In this document: in pieces, positions 5,128 to 64,000 of the stretch
Layout: each line of letters opens with the position of its first letter
Position numbering within the stretch: position 1 is the stretch's first letter
Assembly (NCBI GenBank): GCA_951406725.2
Contig: OX597814.1
Location: 35,340,001-35,404,000, forward strand
DNA length: 64,000 nt
From: Octopus vulgaris
Taxonomy: Eukaryota
Direction: 5' to 3'
Position numbers and translations under genes: made by a program
Notes under the pieces: generated by a model
What the model was told of the DNA's origin: nothing
Seen by the model: only the letters and a program-made list of their open reading frames with translations
The model's database searches: none

Positions 5128-6914
5128 AATTTTTTCTTCTCTCTAAGTCAACTACTGCTGACATTTACATGTCTAACTCTGGTTCCAGTGGTTCTCTTCA
5201 AACTTGACCTGTCAAAAATCCTCTTGCCACATCATAAATGTTTTAGTTACTTTCCCAGATAAAGTAATATGTCTGTATTTAATACAAGATTCAGTTAGAA
5301 ATTTGCTATGTGAGTGTGTTTTCTTTCTCAGCAATGAAATATAAAACTTTGTCACAAAATATTAGTGAAGATACTATGGTAATAAGATCCACATCTAGTT
5401 AAGAATCTGCCCACCTATTAATACGTTCGTGCGACGATGGAAAATCATCAAATACTACGAAACAATAATGGTGGAACATGAATGGTGTGAAAATACGGAA
5501 AAATCATATGCCGCTATATAATAAAGTTTACATTGTAGTCAAAGAACTACATCATATAGTCAAATCAATAAAGCCTGTTCTGTATTCAGCACAATATGGC
5601 TGCCAGAAAGGGGAAAAGGAGTTAAAATATCTCATAATTTAAAATAAATATGCATTACTTGTCCATGGTATAGAGGATAAGAGTGTAATAAAGTTTTGTG
5701 AGTTCATCGACATGTTCCCGTGTGCATTGCCATGACACCTGATGACCAGTGGAGACTAAATCGTTAAACTAAAAGACAGGAAAATATCAGATGAATACAT
5801 TGAAAGATTTTTCTATCCATAATACTTAACGCATTCTGAAAACAATTGTTGCGGTTATTAATAAACCTTAGATCATCGCTAATCAAACAGAACCATGATC
5901 AAAAGTGTTTTAACGTGACTATTCTGTCTTTTTGTCGCATATAACCATTTCTTGTTTGATTTAAAGTAGATTATGATCATTCTTTATTTCTTTCCTCCAA
6001 TTCTGTCTGTATCCTATTTCGCTTTTGCCATGTTAAGGTTATCGGTCAGCTTTTATCTTCTTAGGTAACTAACTGAATTTATATATTCATAAATAACTAA
6101 CCCTTAAACTAACTATTTATACCAAGAAACCAATCTTCTACACTTCCTCTACCTAGAGAAAAATATACCTAAACCAATTATCTCACATTCACAACGTCAC
6201 GAACACTCTGTTCCCTTTTTCAAAACCAGAAAGTGCATCTGCTCTCACCTGTGGCTCACTGTGAATAGAAGTAAGCGTTCATGCCCGGCCTTGTTTCTAA
6301 ACATTTTCCTTTCCATCCAGGTCACAATATACAAACTTTCTGACTCCACAAATCTCAACCGAGGCCACATGTGAGATGGTGTTGTTGCTACGCATACGAT
6401 AATCTAAAAAGAAGAGCTACTTGACTAACTGACCAATTCACTTTAACCAATAAACCCACAGCGTTTTCTGCTGTCAATGCAAATTTCTCAGTCCTCGAAC
6501 CACATACACTGGACCGAGTGAAGGTGGACCACCTCGGAATAGGGGACCAGTAAATCTTTACAATCGGGTTGGTCTCTCCTTGTCTCAGAATAGTTCTGAA
6601 GCTGAACCAGGGATTTCACATGCCAAGTAGTATTTTTCGCCACACTATTCAAACTTACTAACGAATGACCTATAATTAGCATCCCACAATTCTATCCGGG
6701 CATCATTTAGCTTTTTGACCATGCACATTAGGGGTCAGTTTCTTACGTTTAAACAATTTATATCCATTCATAAAAATCTTGAGGTTCACTGAACCAGTTT
6801 TAATTCTTATTCCCTTTTTTAATTCCCCTATTCATTTTAATATCTAACTATCTGTCTGTCTATCTGTCACAAACACACACACACACTCACATGTATACAC
6901 CTATGGGTGTGTGC

Positions 6915-9436: not shown

Positions 9437-10921
9437 ATATATTTTGTTGATGTTTAAGTCACTTGGAATTATTGTAAGGTTAGAATTTTTCGTAAGATAC
9501 TTTATTGCTATTTTAGATAAGATCTAGAGTAATATGTTTCAGAGGAACATCATTAGATCGCTTAAAATGAAGAACTGAACGTGCTGGGAGAAAAGAAACC
9601 TATTATCATTTTATCTATTTGTTTTTCTATTTATTACCTGTGTTGTTGCTTTCAAATCTTTTAGTGACTTATGACAGCAGATTTCTTTCCGTTAGCAATT
9701 GGAAAATAAAATCCCTTGCCATATTGTAGCTCAGTTATAGACTGAAATAAATATTAATATGTACGCACTGGCACATACATGCATATGTATGTATGTGTAC
9801 TTGTATGTATAATATGAAATATAAAAATTCACACAACGGTTTCATGGCATTGTCGAGGCCATTTGTAAAGAGTCAAACCTAGCACGAAGAAGGAAAAGGC
9901 GATGTTAATATCAATGAATGAAGTCATATAAACTTTTCAAACTCTCAAACAGTAATAGAAAACTGGAACTAATTCTAGTTTTCAGTAATACCCAAATGGC
10001 CTGCTTGGTTTTAGCATTGATAATGATATGTATATTATAATACAAGAACAAATGTCAAAAAGACACTTTGTCTGTGTAGCCCTTCTGTCAATTACAAACA
10101 AAATTATCGCAGCAGACATTCTTAACAGAATTATTTTTCTGTTTGTTAACACTATCCTTTCGGAATTATAATGCTTTTTCTGTGATGTACAATGTTGCAT
10201 TGATACATTCTCTGTACTAAGAGAATTACAGAAAATATTTGTGCGCAAACCCAAAACATTTTAATTTTATTTGTTGACCTGGCGAAGAACATATACTAAG
10301 CAAGTTATAATGGGGAAATGGCTATTTCAACAAAAACATGGTATTCTAAAGCTGATGATCAAAAGTGTCATTCTGAAGTCAAAGATGACCTATGTCCAAG
10401 AGGACAAACCATACTCTATACGGTTTAGAATGAACGGTGACATAAAGTAGCATTGGTGCAATTTACCTCTTTATGGTATTTTCCGGGTTACTTTCGAATA
10501 TTCTTCTCTTCTATTAATCACAAACTAGTGCTTAGTGTCTCTTCAATATCTATGATTCAATTCTGGTATAAAATTAAAGTGTGCAATATTCTGGGAATAG
10601 CACTTTGCTAATAATACTTCTTTAAAAGTATACTCGATAGTGATATGAAGTGTATAAAACACCAGGAAATAAAAACTCATTGAAATTTTGAAAAAGTAAA
10701 TTAATTGTGATATTCTCTCGTAAATAAACACTCTAACTACAGAGTTTCCTGTTTAATTCACTCAAGATCAAAATCTCAAGGACATACTTTCTACCTCAAC
10801 AATTTGTCGTTTCGTGTCTCAATTTATGATAAGAATCCACTAAGTAATGCAAAATAAGCAAACACTTGAAGATATTAGTCGTTGTTTTTGAAACTTCAGC
10901 GTCATCTTGCTGGCAAATATT

Positions 10922-35669: not shown

Positions 35670-36170
35670 TTTACCTCAGAAAAATAATAAAAGAATCACA
35701 AATTATCAACAGCCACTAAATCTCAAAAGACTCTTAACAAAAGCGAGATTCATATGAAAGAAACAAATGATGCAAGTGACAAACTGTGGAGATTCTCGTT
35801 GTGAGTGGTATGAAATAATTAAACAAAGAGCGGCCAAATGATTAAAGAATGAGAAGGAATTGAATGTTAATACAAATGTAAAATGTAAAACAACACATCT
35901 CATTTACTGCATCATTTGCTCACAATGCAGTGGCAATTATATCAGTCAAACAAGATCAAAATTAATACATCGGGTTAGGGATGATAAGCAACGAAACAAA
36001 TATTCATATCTTAGAAGTGTTCCATTTTTGAACACCAAGACATTTGTGCAATTGGAAACTTCAAAATATATTCTCTTTTTCAAAATAACGGAAGAAAATG
36101 ATCAAGAACGAAAGTAAAAAGATTAATACCTTATAAGAATTCTAAATCACTAATTAAACCAGAAATGGTC
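35670..36170 (+). mobile_element. Penelope-like GIY-YIG endonuclease remnant
   Basis: QQPLNLKRLLTKARF then KCKTTHLIYCIICSQCSGNYISQT (LIY...YIG-like). Confidence 0.8.
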
Positions 36171-36449
36171 TACACCAGTATTAAAAACAACTTTCTCTAT
36201 ACGGATTACACCATAAAATGTACGTTTGAAAAGCAATAACAACGAATATACTAAACACTATACTACGAAAACTTCCTTCTGAACGGTTCATGTCATAATG
36301 TTTCTTTAAATAGTTTTTATATTATCAGTAATGTTTAATTTGAGTATTACGAAGATGTACTTGCATAGCAAGTGTCTTGATATGAGATCGCATGTTGAAA
36401 CAAAAACAATTGCAGCTTGGAAGATGTTTACAAACCATTTAAGAATACT

Positions 36450-37210
36450 TACCTCGAGGAATTCGTTCCTAAATTTACTGATTTCACCCAAAGAATTCGT
36501 TGGATAGCCTACCACCATAGCAGAAAGCTTAAACTACTCTCGATAGTAGTACCAATGCCACTGCCAACATCAATACCTACAACAACAATATGGATGATAA
36601 GGAGAATTTTCAGAACTAGGAAAACACCACCGCCAAATAGTCACCTTGAAGCTTTTGAAAATGAACTCTGGTCTTTAATTAAGGACATTAAGTTGAATAA
36701 CCACTCCCTTAGGCACAATAAGTACAAAAGGAAGCTTAAGGATTTGGTTCTTGAGCTAAATTCCAAGAAAGGAATAATAGTACACTCAGACAAACATAAA
36801 ATACCTATAACATGAACATTGTCTCTTACCATAAACTTATTCACCGTGAAATCCTTAAAAAATATAAAGTGGTCCCTAAGAGTACACTCAAAACAATCAA
36901 CGTAGAGGCCAACAAGATTATGTTTGAGTATAATATTGATGACAGGATTGCACCATTTACACCGATTAGACCTCGTATAACTATTAAGGATCAAAAAGAT
37001 AATTATCTACATAACACCCAGGTCAAATTAATATGCCCCAATAAGTCAGACGTAGGTAAGCTTAGCATAGCAATCATGGATAAGAATATACCAACCCTTA
37101 AGAAAAAGATTAAACTGAAGTTATGGACAAACACCCGAAGCGCAATAGAATGGTTCTCTAACATAAGATATAAGGATAAACATAAATGTTTGCAAATTGA
37201 CATTCAAAAG
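36450..37210 (+). mobile_element. Penelope-like RT N-terminal remnant
   Basis: LEAFENELWSLIKDI, VHSDK, ITIKDQKDNY...KLICPNKSDVGKLS, WTNTRSAIEWF...QIDI. Confidence 0.85.
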
Positions 37211-38469
37211 AAATTAACGTAATCTTATTGGTCCGTACATTATCAGCCCTACATATATGTGAACAATATTACTCCAATGTTTGATTTTTCATCCTTTTCA
37301 TTTTATTTTATTATGTTTTATATTTTCGCTACTTTATTGTACTCTATGCCCACCAGTATGTTTTTTTTTTTGCATCTACTTGGAGTTAATATATCTTTGT
37401 TTATAATTTTATTGACTAGATTTAATTAATATTTCTCTCTTATCTTAGGGCATTTGTTTCTGCTTTTTAGGCATACTTGGTAAATTGCTTGATTCAAGGT
37501 AACTTTTCTCATTGTGCCAATCTTCTTGTGGACCCGGCATTGATTTGCCCCTATTAGTACCATTATATTCTTCTAAACTGTTTTATGATAATAGGAACTA
37601 TATACTTTGAAGACTATGTAATGCTTATGAAGCTTACTTAGGACATTGTTGACAACTAGGGAGTTTCGTTATTTGATATTATTTCAGCATGTGACTTTTA
37701 TTTCTGCATTGCAGAGCACCTATGAGAGGAATTTTTCTTGCATACCTGTATGTACCTAATTACTACTACAATTCACTATATACGAGGTTTAGCTCAATTT
37801 CTTTCCCTAGTAGTTTTCATTGAAACACTGAATTACCAGTACTAGTTGCCTCCCCCTAACCACTACCTCGAAGATTCCCAAATTCCTCCCTCATGCATGT
37901 TATAACGTTAAGATGCTGAAGAACATAAACAGCCCCACACTATCTATTCATTGGCTCATCCCCTATCTTTTTTCCTTTTGCCTTTCTTGATTATTTTATA
38001 AACAAATTCTTTTTTAACGGTTTTAACTTTGTGACCTCAGTTCAAATTGTAACTGATCAATTGTAGAGACCGCTGGACTTAGACTTGCCCCATTGTGGAC
38101 CATAGGTGGGACTCTGGGTATTAATTTCTATAAGTAAATTTTTCTTTAGCGCCCCACGATAATTCTCTACTTTTACTTGAGTTTACTCTGTTAGCAATAC
38201 TAATCATATTAGTATTTTCTTTATATATAGTTTCTTGATAACTTCTTTTTTAAAACATCCTGACCCCCCACTTCTAATTGAACCTACCCGTTAATAAATA
38301 GTAGTATTCCCTAGACTATTACTAGCTCACTCTTTTAACTACTGACCCTGTAGCCCCTGTTGGTAAATTATCTGCTCTTAATATATTGGGCTTCTAGACT
38401 ATTTGTCTGAGCCCTGTTTTCTTTTTTCCCCTTCTTCCTTTTATTTTTGTATCGTATGATCTTGTATTT

Positions 38470-38583
38470 CTTTCTGATGAAGATCCATTGCCTTAATTCG
38501 AATGCCCTATGAAAAGGTTTTTTTATATATGTATTCAATTATTGACGGCCTTTAGGCAATCCGATCATTTAACGGCCGTAAGA
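38470..38583 (+). ncRNA. Degenerate hammerhead-like motif downstream of a PLE remnant
   Basis: CTGATGA, long stem II (GATC..ATTGCCT/AGGCAAT..GATC), palindromic ACGGCCGT then AAGA; the GAAA box is damaged. Confidence 0.45.
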
Positions 38584-48449: not shown

Positions 48450-48484
48450 GTTTCCGACGAAGAGCTCCGCTCGAAACGTTAAAC
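48450..48484 (+). ncRNA. Minimal type-I hammerhead-like motif (U4C variant) inside a ~200-bp TA-flanked element (48380-48585)
   Basis: GTTT-CCGACGA-A-GAGC(TCC)GCTC-GAAA-CG-TT-AAAC. Confidence 0.7.
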
Positions 48485-49671: not shown

Positions 49672-49761
49672 TTAGAATTTACAAAAAAAAAACAAAAGAC
49701 TAAGACGGGTGTGTAAACGACAAACAAATGTATTAATTTAACGCTCGGGAAGTGAGAAAGA

Positions 49762-49797
49762 CTTTTACGTTTCGAACCTACGCTCTTCGACAGAAAG
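49762..49797 (-). ncRNA. Minimal type-I hammerhead-like motif (A6U variant) inside short repeat 49672-49852
   Basis: Minus strand CTTT-CTGTCGA-A-GAGC(GTAG)GTTC-GAAA-CG-TA-AAAG. Confidence 0.6.
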
Positions 49798-52444: not shown

Positions 52445-55400
52445 ATGAAAACTGGTGTAAGCTGATGATTGGAACATAGCAAAGATGTACTTCTGTTTAA
52501 ACCATGTATGGTCATGGGAAAATATTGCCATACAGGAAAACTGGTGTAAGCTGATGATTGGAACATAGCAAAGATGTACTTCTGTAAAAACCATGTATGG
52601 TCATGGGAAAATATTGCCATACATGAAAACTGGTGTAAGCTGATGATTGGAACATAGCAAAGATGTACTTCTGTAAAAACATGTATGGTCATGGGAAAAT
52701 ATTGCCATACATGAAAACTGGTGTAAGCTGATGATTGGAACATAGCAAAGATGTACTTCTGTAAAAACCATGTATGGTCATGGGAAAATATTGCCATACA
52801 TGAAAACTGGTGTAAGCTGATGATTGGAACATAGCAAAGATGTACTTCTGTAAAAACCATGTATGGTCATGGGAAAATATTGCCATACATGAAAACTGGT
52901 GTAAGCTGATGACTGGAACATAGCAAAGATGTACTTCTGTAAAAACCATGTATGGTCATGGGAAAATATTGCCATACATGAAATACTGAAACTGTAAGCT
53001 GATGACTGGAACATAGCAAAGATGTACTTCTGTAAAAACCATGTATGGTCATGGGAAAATATTGCCATACATGAAAACTGGTGTAGCTGATGCTGGATGA
53101 TGAAAACTGGAACATAGCATAAAGATGTACTTCTGTAAAAACATGTATGGTCATGGGAAAATATTGCCATACATGAAAACTGGTGTAAGCTGATGATTGG
53201 AACATAGCAAAGATGTACTTCTGTAAAAACATGTATGGTCATGGGAAAATATTGCCATACATGAAAACTGGTGTAAGCTGATGATTGGAACATAGCAAAG
53301 ATGTACTTCTGTAAAAACATGTATGGTCATGGGAAAATATTGCCATACATGAAAACTGGTGTAAGCTGATGATTGGAACATAGCAAAGATGTACTTCTGT
53401 AAAAACATGTATGGTCATGGGAAAATATTGCCATACATGAAAACTGGTGTAATGGTCATGATGATTGGAACATAGCAAAGATGTACTTCTGTAAAAACCA
53501 TGTATGGTCATGGGAAAATATTGCCATTGAAAACTGGTGTAAGCTGATGATGGAATACATGTAAAAAATGTATGGTCTGGTGTAAGCTGGTGATGATTGG
53601 AACATAGCAAAGATGTACTTCTGTAAAAACATGTATGGTCATGGGAAAATATTGCCATACATGAAAACTGGTGTAAGCTGATGATTGGAACATAGCAAAG
53701 ATGTACTTCTGTAAAAACCATGTATGGTCATGGGAAAATATTGCCATACATGAAAACTGGTGTAAGCTGATGACTGGAACATAGCAAAGATGTACTTCTG
53801 TAAAAACATGTATGGTCATGGGAAAATATTGCCATACATGAAAACTGGTGTAAGCTGATGATTGGAACATAGCAAAGATGTACTTCTGTAAAAACCATGT
53901 ATGGTCATGGGAAAATATTGCCATACATGAAAACTGGTGTAAGCTGATGATTGGAACATAGCAAAGATGTACTTCTGTGAAAACCATGTATGGTCATGGG
54001 AAAATATTGCCATACATGAAAACTGGTGTAAGCTGATGACTGGAACATAGCAAAGATGTACTTCTGTAAAAACCATGTATGGTCATGGGAAAATATTGCC
54101 ATACATGAAAACTGGTGTAAGCTGATGATTGGAACATAGCAAAGATGTACTTCTGTAAAAACATGTATGGTCATGGGAAAATATTGCCATACATGAAAAC
54201 TGGTGTAAGCTGATGATTGGAACATAGCAAAGATGTACTTCTGTAAAACCATGTATGGTCATGGGAAAATATTGCCATACATGAAAACTGGTGTAAGCTG
54301 ATGACTGGAACATAGCAAAGATGTACTTCTGTAAAAACATGTATGGTCATGGGAAAATATTGCCATACATGAAAACTGGTGTAAGCTGATGACTGGAACA
54401 TAGCAAAGATGTACTTCTGTAAAAACATGTATGGTCATGGGAAAATATTGCCATACATGAAAACTGGTGTAAGCTGATGACTGGAACATAGCAAAGATGT
54501 ACTTCTGTAAAAACATGTATGGTCATGGGAAAATATTGCCATACATGAAAACTGGTGTAAGCTGATGATTGGAACATAGCAAAGATGTACTTCTGTAGCA
54601 AAAAAACCATGTATGGTCATGGGAAAATATTGCCATACATGAAAACTGGTGTAAGCTGATGATTGGAACATAGCAAAGATGTACTTCTGTAAAAACCATG
54701 TATGGTCATGGGAAAATATTGCCATACATGAAAACTGGTGTAAGCTGATGACTGGAACATAGCAAAGATGTACTTCTGTAAAAACATGTATGGTCATGGG
54801 AAAATATTGCCATACATGAAAACTGGTGTAAGCTGATGATTGGAACATAGCAAAGATGTACTTCTGTAAAAACCATGTATGGTCATGGGAAAATATTGCC
54901 ATACATGAAAACTGGTGTAAGCTGATGATTGGAACATAGCAAAGATGTACTTCTGTAAAAACATGTATGGTCATGGGAAAATATTGCCATACATGAAAAC
55001 TGGTGTAAGCTGATGATTGGAACATAGCAAAGATGTACTTCTGTAAAAACCATGTATGGTCATGGGAAAATATTGCCATACATGAAAGCTGGTGTAAGCT
55101 GATGGTTGGAACATAGCAAAGATGTACTTCTGTAAAAACCATGTATGGTCATGGGAAAATATTGCCCATACATGAAAACATAGCAAAGATGTATTCTGTA
55201 AGCTGATGACTGGAACATAGCAAAGATGTACTTCTGTAAAAACATGTATGGTCATGGGAAAATATTGCCATACATGAAAACTGGTGTAAGCTGATGACTG
55301 GAACATAGCAAAGATGTACTTCTGTAAAAACATGTATGGTCATGGGAAAATATTGCCATACATGAAAACTGGTGTAAGCTGATGACTGGAACATAGCAAA

Positions 55401-56030
55401 GATGTACTTCTGTAAAAACATGTATGGTCATGGGAAAATATTGCCATACATGAAAACTGGTGTAAGCTGATGACTGGAACATAGCAAAGATGTACTTCTG
55501 TAAAAACCATGTATGGTCATGGGAAAATATTGCCATACATGAAAACTGGTGTAAGCTGATGATTGGAACATAGCAAAGATGTACTTCTGTAAAAACATGT
55601 ATGGTCATGGGAAAATATTGCCATACATGAAAACTGGTGTAAGCTGATGATTGGAACATAGCAAAGATGTACTTCTGTAAAAACCATGTATGGTCATGGG
55701 AAAATATTGCCATACATGAAAACTGGTGTAAGCTGATGATTGGAACATAGCAAAGATGTACTTCTGTAAAAACCATGTATGGTCATGGGAAAATATTGCC
55801 ATACATGAAAACTGGTGTAAGCTGATGATTGGAACATAGCAAAGATGTACTTCTGTAAAAACCATGTATGGTCATGGGGAAATATTACCATACATGATAA
55901 CTGGTGTAAGCTGATGGTTGGAACATAGCAAAGATGTACTTCTGTAAAAACCATGTATGGTCATGGGAAAATATTGCCATACATGAAAACTGGTGTAAGC
56001 TGATGGTTGAAACATAGCAAAGATGTACTT
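52445..56030. repeat. Tandem array of an 88/89-bp unit, ~40 copies
   Basis: Unit ATGAAAACTGGTGTAAGCTGATGA(T/C)TGGAACATAGCAAAGATGTACTTCTGTAAAAAC(C)ATGTATGGTCATGGGAAAATATTGCCATAC, head to tail, no spacers. Confidence 0.98.
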
Positions 56031-60015: not shown

Positions 60016-60359
60016 TATATGCTGCAGTGGTGGTAGTGATGGTGTTGGTGATGGCAATGTTCATGGTAGTGTTGTTGTATTTTGTTATGTTATTTTCATA
60101 TTATTTTGAAGTTCTTGTGATGGTGCAGGAAATTTATGTCAATTTTTCTGTGTAGAGTTGTTGTTGCTGTTGTTGATTTTGTTGCTATTGTTGATGGTTG
60201 TTTTTGTAGTGGTGGTGTTAGCAGTGATGCTGGAGTTGTGTTTTGAGCATTTTGCTGCTGTTGTGAATCATTGTTTGCACATGTGAAATATCTTTGCAGA
60301 TTTTGCAAGTGTGGAAGGGGATGATGACTTCTTTTTTTTATTTTATAATTTTGTGGTTG

Positions 60360-60563
60360 AGATGCAGCACGGATTTTTGTCAGTGAACAGGTCGCGGATT
60401 TTAGTGACGAAAATATTTTGACAAATTAAACTTAAATGTTGAAGTGAATCGAACGGCTTTTGTGTGTTTCTTAAATGGCTTACAAACACCTTCCACGCTG
60501 CAATTGTTTCCGTTTCAGCACACAATCTCAGATCAAATCACTTGCTATGCGAGTACATCTCCG
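60360..60563 (+). mobile_element. 204-bp non-coding element carrying a hammerhead motif
   Basis: 14-bp direct repeat TAATTTTGTGGTTG at 60346-60359 and 60564-60577; right half is homologous (inverted) to 36347-36445. Confidence 0.8.
60376..60425 (+). ncRNA. Minimal type-I hammerhead ribozyme motif with G3-C8 swapped core
   Basis: TTTGTCA-GTGAACA-G-GTCGC(GGATTTTA)GTGAC-GAAA-ATAT-TT-TGACAAA: 7-bp stem I, 5-bp stem II, palindromic stem III. Confidence 0.75.
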
Positions 60564-60825
60564 TAATTTTGTGGTTGTAATGTGTTTAAAATTTGTACTA
60601 ACAGAGACTTTGGCCCAAATATTAAAAGGTGTCAGAGTAATGTAGGGTGTTCCCTTTACAGTTTGTAATAAAAAATGTTAACAAGAAATATTATGTAAAC
60701 AAGTGAAAATCAACAAAACTTATGGAGCAAAAGTATGTGATGACTAATTAAGAAACCAATAACGACAACAATAATAATAATAATGATGATGACGATAATA
60801 ATAATAATAATGATAATAATAATAA

Positions 60826-63290: not shown

Positions 63291-64000
63291 TAACAAAGTT
63301 GAGTTGTGGGGTATCGCACGAGTGGAATTATATATGAAAGAAGGTTTGAAAATGCAATTTAAAAGATGTTTATTTACTTTACCGGTTTCACTCTTTGGAA
63401 AAAGTTTATCAAAAGTAACATGTGGAAGTTTGGTTGCGTTAAGTATTGGTTGTTGCAAATTGCTACATTACATATATATATATATATATATATATATACA
63501 GTATTTGGAAACAGGGACATGTTAAGGACATAAAAATGTACAACAGTATGTTGAGAATATAAAGAGGTTTAACAAGCTCATTGAAAAAATGGGCAGAAAA
63601 GATTAAAACAAATATATTATACATCTCAGGATAATTTCCAGGAGGAATTATTAAAAAAGTTCAGTACAGAATATTATGAATTCAAAAAGATTTACATTAA
63701 TGTGGTGGCGAGGTTGTTACTGACCTGTCCGTTTTAGCAGAGATGTGGAATTGAAAAGGATGTACCCGATTTTTCTTTTTTTGGCTTTCCTTCAAGCATC
63801 AATGATTTTGGGGTTAGGATGAGGTGAATATGTGTGTCTCTGCGTGTATGTGTGTATGCATACATATACATGTGGTGTGAATAGATGTGTCTGTGTGTCT
63901 GTAGTATTTGGTCAGATGGTGTCTGTTTGTCAAACGTGTGTGTGGTTGTCATGGTGTTGTGTGTGTGTGTGTGTGTGCATGCGCACGCATGTATGTGTGT

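Follow-up and report, generated by a model that had tools for sequence, protein, structure and literature searches.

The window analyzed in this study, a stretch of 64,000 nucleotides of the Octopus vulgaris genome (assembly GCA_951406725.2, contig OX597814.1, positions 35,340,001 to 35,404,000 of the forward strand), contains an insert of 208 bp at positions 60360-60567 that is very probably the 5′ module of a Penelope-like element (PLE) encoding a reverse transcriptase (RT) and a GIY-YIG endonuclease. This solo module of the PLE family referred to as family A comprises a 5′ leader of 115 nt, in which a hammerhead motif with a G3-C8 core pair is embedded, followed by codons 1-31 of the open reading frame (ORF) of the element. 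It was likely generated when the protein of the element introduced a nick into AT-rich DNA, initiated reverse transcription approximately 208 nt from the start of a capped sense transcript, and copied this RNA to the cap. Comparison of the sequences directly supports the parentage, the two fixed 3′ ends, the pairing of short with long arms, the target-site duplications (TSDs), the bias towards (TA)n, the fixed start with its additional G, and the covariation of the 3-8 pair.

The insert and its parent element

Based on the sequence alone, the insert had previously been described as a non-coding, retrozyme-like or PLE-dependent mobile mini-element flanked by a 14-bp perfect direct repeat. This direct repeat and every other motif named in the sequence-only reading were recovered at their positions (Table 1), together with an unpaired G at 60390 that had not been noted in that reading. 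The insert proved to be mobile, dependent on a PLE, and flanked by TSDs, but it does not mainly represent an independent retrozyme-like family, and it is not wholly non-coding, because its last 93 bp represent codons 1-31 of the parent ORF.

In a first search with the element, 3,598 candidates were obtained, the best 40 of which were 96-100% identical. Exact matches numbered 853 for a 34-mer of the young form and 8,090 for a 21-mer that older forms also contain, the number of control matches being 0; sequence runs of four organisms were also found to contain the element. The parent, found at L131-L141 and L133, encodes one ORF featuring an RT and, at the C-terminus, a GIY-YIG domain. The ORF contains YVDD and YIG motifs and matched Pfam PF01541 (GIY-YIG), and no match to Pfam RVT_1 was obtained for the 217-aa RT piece scanned. 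At L133, L152, L153, and other loci, the upstream module continues straight into the ORF, and a module was located approximately 1 kb after the ORF at 11 of the 11 family-A RT loci examined. At L133, the module at 5220-5426 runs into the ORF and a second module is located at 9481-9682, representing a partial tandem with a pseudo-long terminal repeat (pseudo-LTR) that includes the first codons. The family-A copies examined contained stops or frameshifts, or lacked the start. The haplotype of the window copy was common to 42 solo and 16 upstream-extended copies, and all five large solo haplotypes, that of the window included, were also represented by extended copies, the sample of extended copies for this comparison being biased to young ones.

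The parent ORF features a CX3CxxC linker before the GIY-YIG domain, and the element targets (TA)n. As judged from its sequence, the linker places family A with Nematis/Neptune, and by eye the endonuclease spacing looked more like that of Nematis than that of Neptune when set against the Nematis rows of the PMC8557442 supplement. According to PMC8557442 and PMC3846280, the endonuclease-bearing (EN+) PLEs of Nematis/Neptune share with family A one ORF with RT followed by GIY-YIG, a CX2-5CxxC zinc-finger linker, pseudo-LTRs with the first codons, partial tandems, an inverted 5′-truncated partner, a tail at one end, the (TA)n bias, TSDs near 8-10 bp, a hammerhead in the pseudo-LTR, and solo pseudo-LTRs. 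In contrast to these elements, the tail is approximately 60 bp long here instead of 30-40 bp, the ORF comprises approximately 1,310 codons (in sister family B), DKSG and GAIG motifs are present, solos dominate, a single start site with an extra G is used, and the hammerhead core is of the G3-C8 type. The family-A ORF shares 24-28% identity with another PLE ORF in L091 (2427-4865, plus strand), where a nearly intact PLE with RT, GIY-YIG, and a long-spaced linker adjoins a family-A insertion.

Ends, partners, and templates of the copies

The ends were evaluated for 98 copies taken from the first 100 listed of the 853 matches of the 34-mer, a sample that requires the 5′ part. In total, 76 of these copies start within 6 nt of +1, the common start site, and 22 extend upstream. 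Among the first 30 of the 8,090 matches of the 21-mer, 13 start at +1 (within 4 nt), one slightly upstream, and 16 internally (by eye). The 3′ ends are bimodal, being located near positions 149 and 208 of the module, i.e., 60 nt apart. An adjacent inverted arm was detected in 50 of 77 matches, and 36 of 42 inverted pairs consisted of one short and one long arm, with no short+short and no long+long pairs and six of other composition. In 34 of 42 cases, an arm beginning at the module start has a partner whose start lies no more than 30 nt from +1, and extended arms were paired with extended arms wherever a partner was seen. The sister families B and C likewise feature two ends and mostly short+long pairing (by eye), with one possible long+long pair in family C (L361). 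Furthermore, the tail is found at one end only and an inverted 5′-truncated partner is present, both being marks of EN+ PLEs. Contact with a microsatellite was detected for 42 of the 67 insertions scored for their target (after three rows had been dropped), (TA)n serving as target, and TSDs of 9-14 bp were found in 19 of 25 insertions with unique flanks, compared to 1.2% of 600 control pairings.

A non-templated G precedes +1 in 25 of the 30 copies that start exactly there, and a G also precedes several starts located 1-4 nt upstream of +1. Upstream-extended copies feature C or T before +1. The extra G was present in 11 of 15 copies without inverted partner, and at internal breaks, which often abut the start of a partner and thus are not fully independent, it was found in 5 of 49 cases (p 5e-11 for the comparison with the 25 of 30). 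A terminal-transferase origin of the G is unsupported, given this low number at internal breaks. Reverse transcriptases are known from L1 work to copy the RNA cap as a G. We infer that the start site is an RNA polymerase II start and that the G probably represents the copied cap; the fixed start with its non-templated G therefore suggests a capped sense RNA as template. For the window copy, the left TSD may comprise 13 bp plus the non-templated G instead of 14 bp. In family B, the starts are spread over approximately 50 nt and most copies extend upstream, so the sharp start is particular to family A. Of the Pol III boxes, a B-box-like match was noticed by eye, and solely in young copies on their minus strand.

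Discordance between the two arms of a pair amounted to 15%, compared to 39% by chance. However, loop 2 of the hammerhead is not the same in the two arms of 6 of the 26 informative pairs, beyond what one template can provide, and these pairs therefore require either a second RNA or gene conversion at a later time. Four of them (L177, L256, L264, and L278) differ by a multi-base haplotype with an indel, and two lie within 14-bp TSDs. Discordance 5′ of the hammerhead palindrome was found in 6 of 26 pairs versus 2 of 33 pairs 3′ of it (p 0.12). In the literature on PLEs searched here, neither a cap-derived G nor a two-RNA model was found.

Under the proposed mechanism, transcription would start at +1 of an upstream module, and the protein would bind the module and make a staggered cut in AT-rich DNA. 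The cDNA would be primed from both target strands, at the inner and the outer internal RT start, and RT would either copy to the cap or break off, after which the two cDNA arms would join by microhomology at their ends. Most pairs would use one RNA and a minority a second one, and, if the bound module is the first on the RNA, a solo product such as the window copy would result. For PLE insertion, an antisense self-priming model has been proposed (PMC3846280); the mechanism outlined here argues against it and agrees with the behavior of an Anolis PLE in vitro (PMC11167929), where both strands were cleaved and extended, RT began at two internal sites defining the tail, and the ribozyme was not needed. 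For this Anolis element, Poseidon PAc, the target is likewise AT-rich, and its inner RT start is located approximately 85-92 nt after the ribozyme cut, compared to approximately 89 nt here. It belongs to a different clade, and a cap-derived G, a strict long+short count, and two-template arms were not seen in the accessible part of that report.

The hammerhead motif and its 3-8 pair

A descriptor scan of the window, allowing any Watson-Crick 3-8 pair, resulted in two matches, this insert and a motif at 63412 on the minus strand. The insert features all positions of a type I minimal hammerhead of PLEs (N3-U4-G5-A6-N7-N8-A9, G12-A13-A14, A15.1-U16.1, H17, a Watson-Crick 3-8 pair, and stems I and II), and the minimum-energy structure of 60370-60430 consists of stems I and II (z -2.3; 3 of 200 shuffles). 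It deviates from the canonical C3-G8 type, and a hammerhead was absent among the 127 Rfam matches at E<=5. For the whole 204 nt, the stability was not unusual (z +0.61). A G-U pair in stem II is private to the window copy, most copies featuring G-C. No variant of at least 8% was detected at core positions 60383-60390 or 60409-60418 (assembled contigs, four organisms). Within family A, subfamily-level changes affected 0 of 13 core, 1 of 35 structured (a G-U pair being kept), and 12 of 74 other positions (p 0.058).

The position 3-8 pair is G3-C8 in family A, C3-G8 in family B, and U3-A8 in family C, and it therefore covaries through three states. As had been proposed in the sequence-only reading, G3-C8 behaves as a compensatory pair in this comparison of sister families. 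At approximately 40-55% protein identity, the three families keep G5, A6, G12, A13, A14, and U16.1, and stems I and II show compensating changes between them, the extra G and the place before the ATG being retained (motif-to-ATG distances of 56 nt in A, 101 nt in B, and 73 nt in C). In family C, U3-A8 and U17 were each found in 29 of 30 copies. Family B, which is approximately 55% identical to family A over RT and endonuclease, features C at position 9 in the lineage sampled, an older relative (L331) having A9; position 17 was C in 15 and U in 15 of 30 family-B copies, which were retrieved with a pattern that fixed the B core. A total of 2,748 pattern matches was obtained for family B, its ORFs comprise 1,310-1,312 codons in 9 of 9 loci, and an Octopus vulgaris-labelled protein is 99% identical to it. 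Despite the C at hammerhead position 9, family B (L142-L150) is very young, with many intact ORFs of approximately 1,310 codons, and it is well suited to biochemical work.

In PLE minimal hammerheads (PMC4209133), type I architecture, an extra base between positions 9 and 10.1 (a hallmark of this group), G10.1-C11.1, a short palindromic stem III, and a predicted dimer have been described, all of which apply here. U3-A8 covariation has also been reported (PMC4209133, PMC3088659). G3-C8 was not seen in the accessible parts of these reports; here, one genome combines G-C, C-G, and U-A, and families A and C feature U17. The Anolis PAc double mutant C3G/G8C, which is partly active (PMC11167929), is engineered, whereas G3-C8 is natural in family A. 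A natural G3-C8 pair was not found in the hammerhead literature, the coverage of which was partial so that a prior report is possible, and the earlier statement that such variants had already been noted in PLE hammerheads was not confirmed there. In the literature searched, the natural G3-C8, the three core states in sister families, the cap-type G, and the two-template arms were not encountered, while the one-end tail, inverted partners, solo pseudo-LTRs, U3-A8, and engineered G3-C8 are already known.

According to prediction, folding of the hammerhead would require a dimer, its cleavage would be slow or would not occur, and it would be dispensable for insertion. In ViennaRNA dimer folds, the catalytic dimer was not recovered as the minimum-energy form. 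Arms starting at the predicted cut numbered only 2 among the arms tallied in 342 copies, without a pile-up of ends, so the genomic copies come from uncut RNA. A separate question is whether the motif has no catalytic activity in vivo and has been retained for its fold or as a surface for pairing, which we consider a serious possibility, although the less probable answer. It is favored by the only partial rescue through engineered G3-C8 and the unaffected insertion of ribozyme mutants (PMC11167929), by the uncut templates, by C9 in family B, and by U17, through which the palindrome reaches into A13-A14 in all three families (in family A, a 10-bp duplex of -3.8 versus a 6-bp duplex of -0.2 kcal/mol). 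However, the 3-8 pair remains Watson-Crick in all three diverged families, together with the retained core bases listed above, and no subfamily-level change was found at the 13 core positions.

A more specific proposal, which we regard as rather unlikely, is that the hammerhead serves as an RNA-pairing device: the 3-8 pair would drift among G-C, C-G, and U-A, U17 would lengthen the palindrome, and two capped RNAs would be held in a dimeric RT complex, in which the inner and outer starts each fire once on opposite strands and RT switches at the palindrome. If true, a switch to the partner RNA at this site would explain arms of different subfamilies inside one TSD-flanked insertion.

Further hammerhead-like motifs were observed in the window. 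The motif at 63412 (-), which had not been listed before, features U3-A8 and a 6-nt palindromic stem III, and a similar one is located in L140 (7743, -); four motifs of this type were found among the loci and the window. The motifs at 48450 (+) and 49762 (-) feature C3-G8, a 4-nt palindrome, and U4C or A6U changes, a class recurring in several loci, and the one at 38470 (+) is a decayed C3-G8 motif. These three had been combined with the insert into a set of variant ribozyme elements, but they do not belong to family A, from which they differ in sequence and palindrome. Compared to shuffles, the 48450, 38470, and 63412 motifs yielded no better folds, and the fold window 49715-49775 missed the core of the 49762 motif.

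The right half of the insert had been reported to recur inverted next to a PLE RT remnant, and this recurrence was borne out with 84% identity over 100 bp (Table 1). The remnant itself (35695-37222, +), a decayed PLE, is unrelated to family A; in it, a piece resembling an endonuclease lies upstream of one resembling an RT, which is probably the domain order of Naiad. Because it shows no similarity to the parent ORF, the adjacency looks incidental. At 52445-56030, units of 88-89 bp form a satellite array in which higher-order repeats are present.

Table 1. Coordinates of the insert, its parts, and a second module copy in the window.
Feature	Position	Strand	Remark
Left TSD, 14 bp	60346..60359	+	Last G falls at the place of the non-templated G of most solo starts
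Solo 5′ module of PLE family A	60360..60567	+	Common start site A+1 (inferred transcription start) to long 3′ end
Type I minimal hammerhead	60376..60425	+	Motif scan, fold, sister-family covariation
Stem I	60376-60382 / 60419-60425	+	
Core G3-U4-G5-A6-A7-C8-A9	60383-60389	+	
Extra unpaired G between positions 9 and 10.1	60390	+	
Stem II	60391-60395 / 60404-60408	+	
GAA	60409-60411	+	
Palindromic stem III	60412-60417	+	
U17	60418	+	Predicted cut directly after
PLE ORF codons 1-31	60475..60567	+	94% identical to N-terminus of full-length copy in L133
Short 3′ end	60504..60509	+	End of roughly half of the copies; putative inner start of reverse transcription
PLE tail, about 60 bp	60508..60567	+	Between short and long 3′ ends; tail as defined in PMC8557442 and PMC11167929
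Right TSD	60564..60577	+	First 5 bases are also the element's own sequence (microhomology at priming site)
Second, older, 5′-truncated module copy	36346..36445	-	Long 3′ end, without hammerhead, inside unrelated PLE remnant

Alternative origins and implications

Several observations weigh against the formation of the insert from a capped family-A transcript. An intact family-A ORF was not found among the copies examined, the longest open frame comprising 1,025 codons, and the short arms vastly outnumber the ORF copies (8,090 matches of the 21-mer, compared to 53 family-A matches among the 150 RT matches scored). Three small solo haplotypes (3-4 copies each) have no match in the sample of extended copies, which is biased to young ones, and an ORF-less lineage, described below, has moved in trans. 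Because of this lineage and the excess of short arms, some solos may be source elements themselves. The sequence before +1 resembles a branch point plus 3′ splice site, and the reading of the G as a cap draws on the L1 background. The loop-2 discordance of 6 of 26 pairs exceeds one template, the depletion of subfamily changes in structured positions (1 of 35 versus 12 of 74) is only borderline, and core conservation is imperfect because the sampled lineage of family B carries C at position 9.

The ORF-less lineage is a small tandem offshoot with a 166-bp unit composed of the short form and a TA-rich spacer. The 79 junctions counted for it are distributed over four contigs, a single array containing 28; the unit junction was also present in the sequence run of another organism. 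Its insertions keep PLE ends, and the module alone has therefore moved in trans. Arrays of this hammerhead unit with a shared spacer and up to approximately 30 units are located at L379 (G000:C2:17907300-17913900), L380, L383, L384, and L375, and they represent a candidate retrozyme that arose from a PLE module. At L266 (G000:C2:23578946-23580046), module positions 1-56 alone form short head-to-tail repeats, which stop immediately ahead of the palindrome's end.

Alternatively, the solos might constitute a self-propagating, non-autonomous family resembling short interspersed nuclear elements (SINEs), with an internal promoter and mobilized in trans by the family-A protein. The great excess of short arms over ORF copies, the three small solo-only haplotypes, and the spacer-tagged ORF-less lineage at C2, C15, C22, and C28, which indicates that the module alone supports mobilization, are in line with this; however, all five large solo haplotypes are common to upstream-extended copies, and the 12 subfamily-level changes in codons 1-31 include neither a stop nor an indel. 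We consider an origin of this kind unlikely, the two explanations not being exclusive.

It is considerably less probable that the fixed 5′ end represents a splice junction, with the start site being a 3′ splice acceptor and the extra G deriving from an upstream exon. A branch-point-like, pyrimidine-rich sequence ending in CAG or TAG indeed directly precedes the module, and introns are frequent in PLE leaders (PMC2377424). However, every copy has a different sequence upstream of the G, a G also precedes starts located 1-4 nt further upstream, and a shared exon was found neither in the upstream flanks of 60 loci nor among the listed loose ends; as the copies have nothing in common upstream of the G, a splice acceptor is the less likely reading.

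Non-LTR animal retrozymes are short, hammerhead-bearing, and PLE-derived elements (PMC7229834; 10.64898/2026.07.22.740005), and have been proposed to derive from PLE ends (10.64898/2026.07.22.740005). A retrozyme origin, in which tandem transcripts self-cleave, monomers circularize, and circles are copied by rolling-circle reverse transcription, is very improbable for the window copy, even though its hammerhead features a dimer-type stem III. The 166-bp tandem offshoot, with approximately 30 units on C2 and the motif intact in 27 of 28 scored units, fits the description of these elements, and head-to-tail units each with a hammerhead were found only there: the window copy, like nearly all copies sampled, is single or inverted instead of tandem, and it represents a dispersed monomer that has PLE ends and includes coding sequence. 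Furthermore, hardly any arms begin at the cut site, the array L380 retains the G start and the tail, both of which would be absent from a cut-to-cut circle, and the 204 nt have no special fold. Finally, a miniature inverted-repeat transposable element (MITE) with short terminal inverted repeats has a practically negligible probability: the weak self-complementarity of the ends noted previously is real (7 of 8 bases match), but its interpretation as terminal inverted repeat or circle-closing stem was rejected given the lack of a special fold and the variable TSDs, and the MITE is refuted by TSDs varying between 9 and 14 bp instead of being short and fixed, by the 5′ truncation of copies, by the presence of two 3′ ends, and by a parent that encodes an RT and an endonuclease.

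For PLE insertion, internal initiation has so far been demonstrated in vitro only (PMC11167929). Thousands of young short insertions in one genome represent a natural record of this process, in which a capped template of sense orientation is indicated by the G, likely derived from the cap, two starts on two strands by the strictness of the long+short pairing, and the participation of a second RNA in some events by the mismatched arms. For ribozyme work, the three related natural hammerheads, which have G-C, C-G, and U-A at positions 3-8, provide a comparison set, and they illustrate that CUGANGA searches and Rfam miss high-copy hammerhead families.
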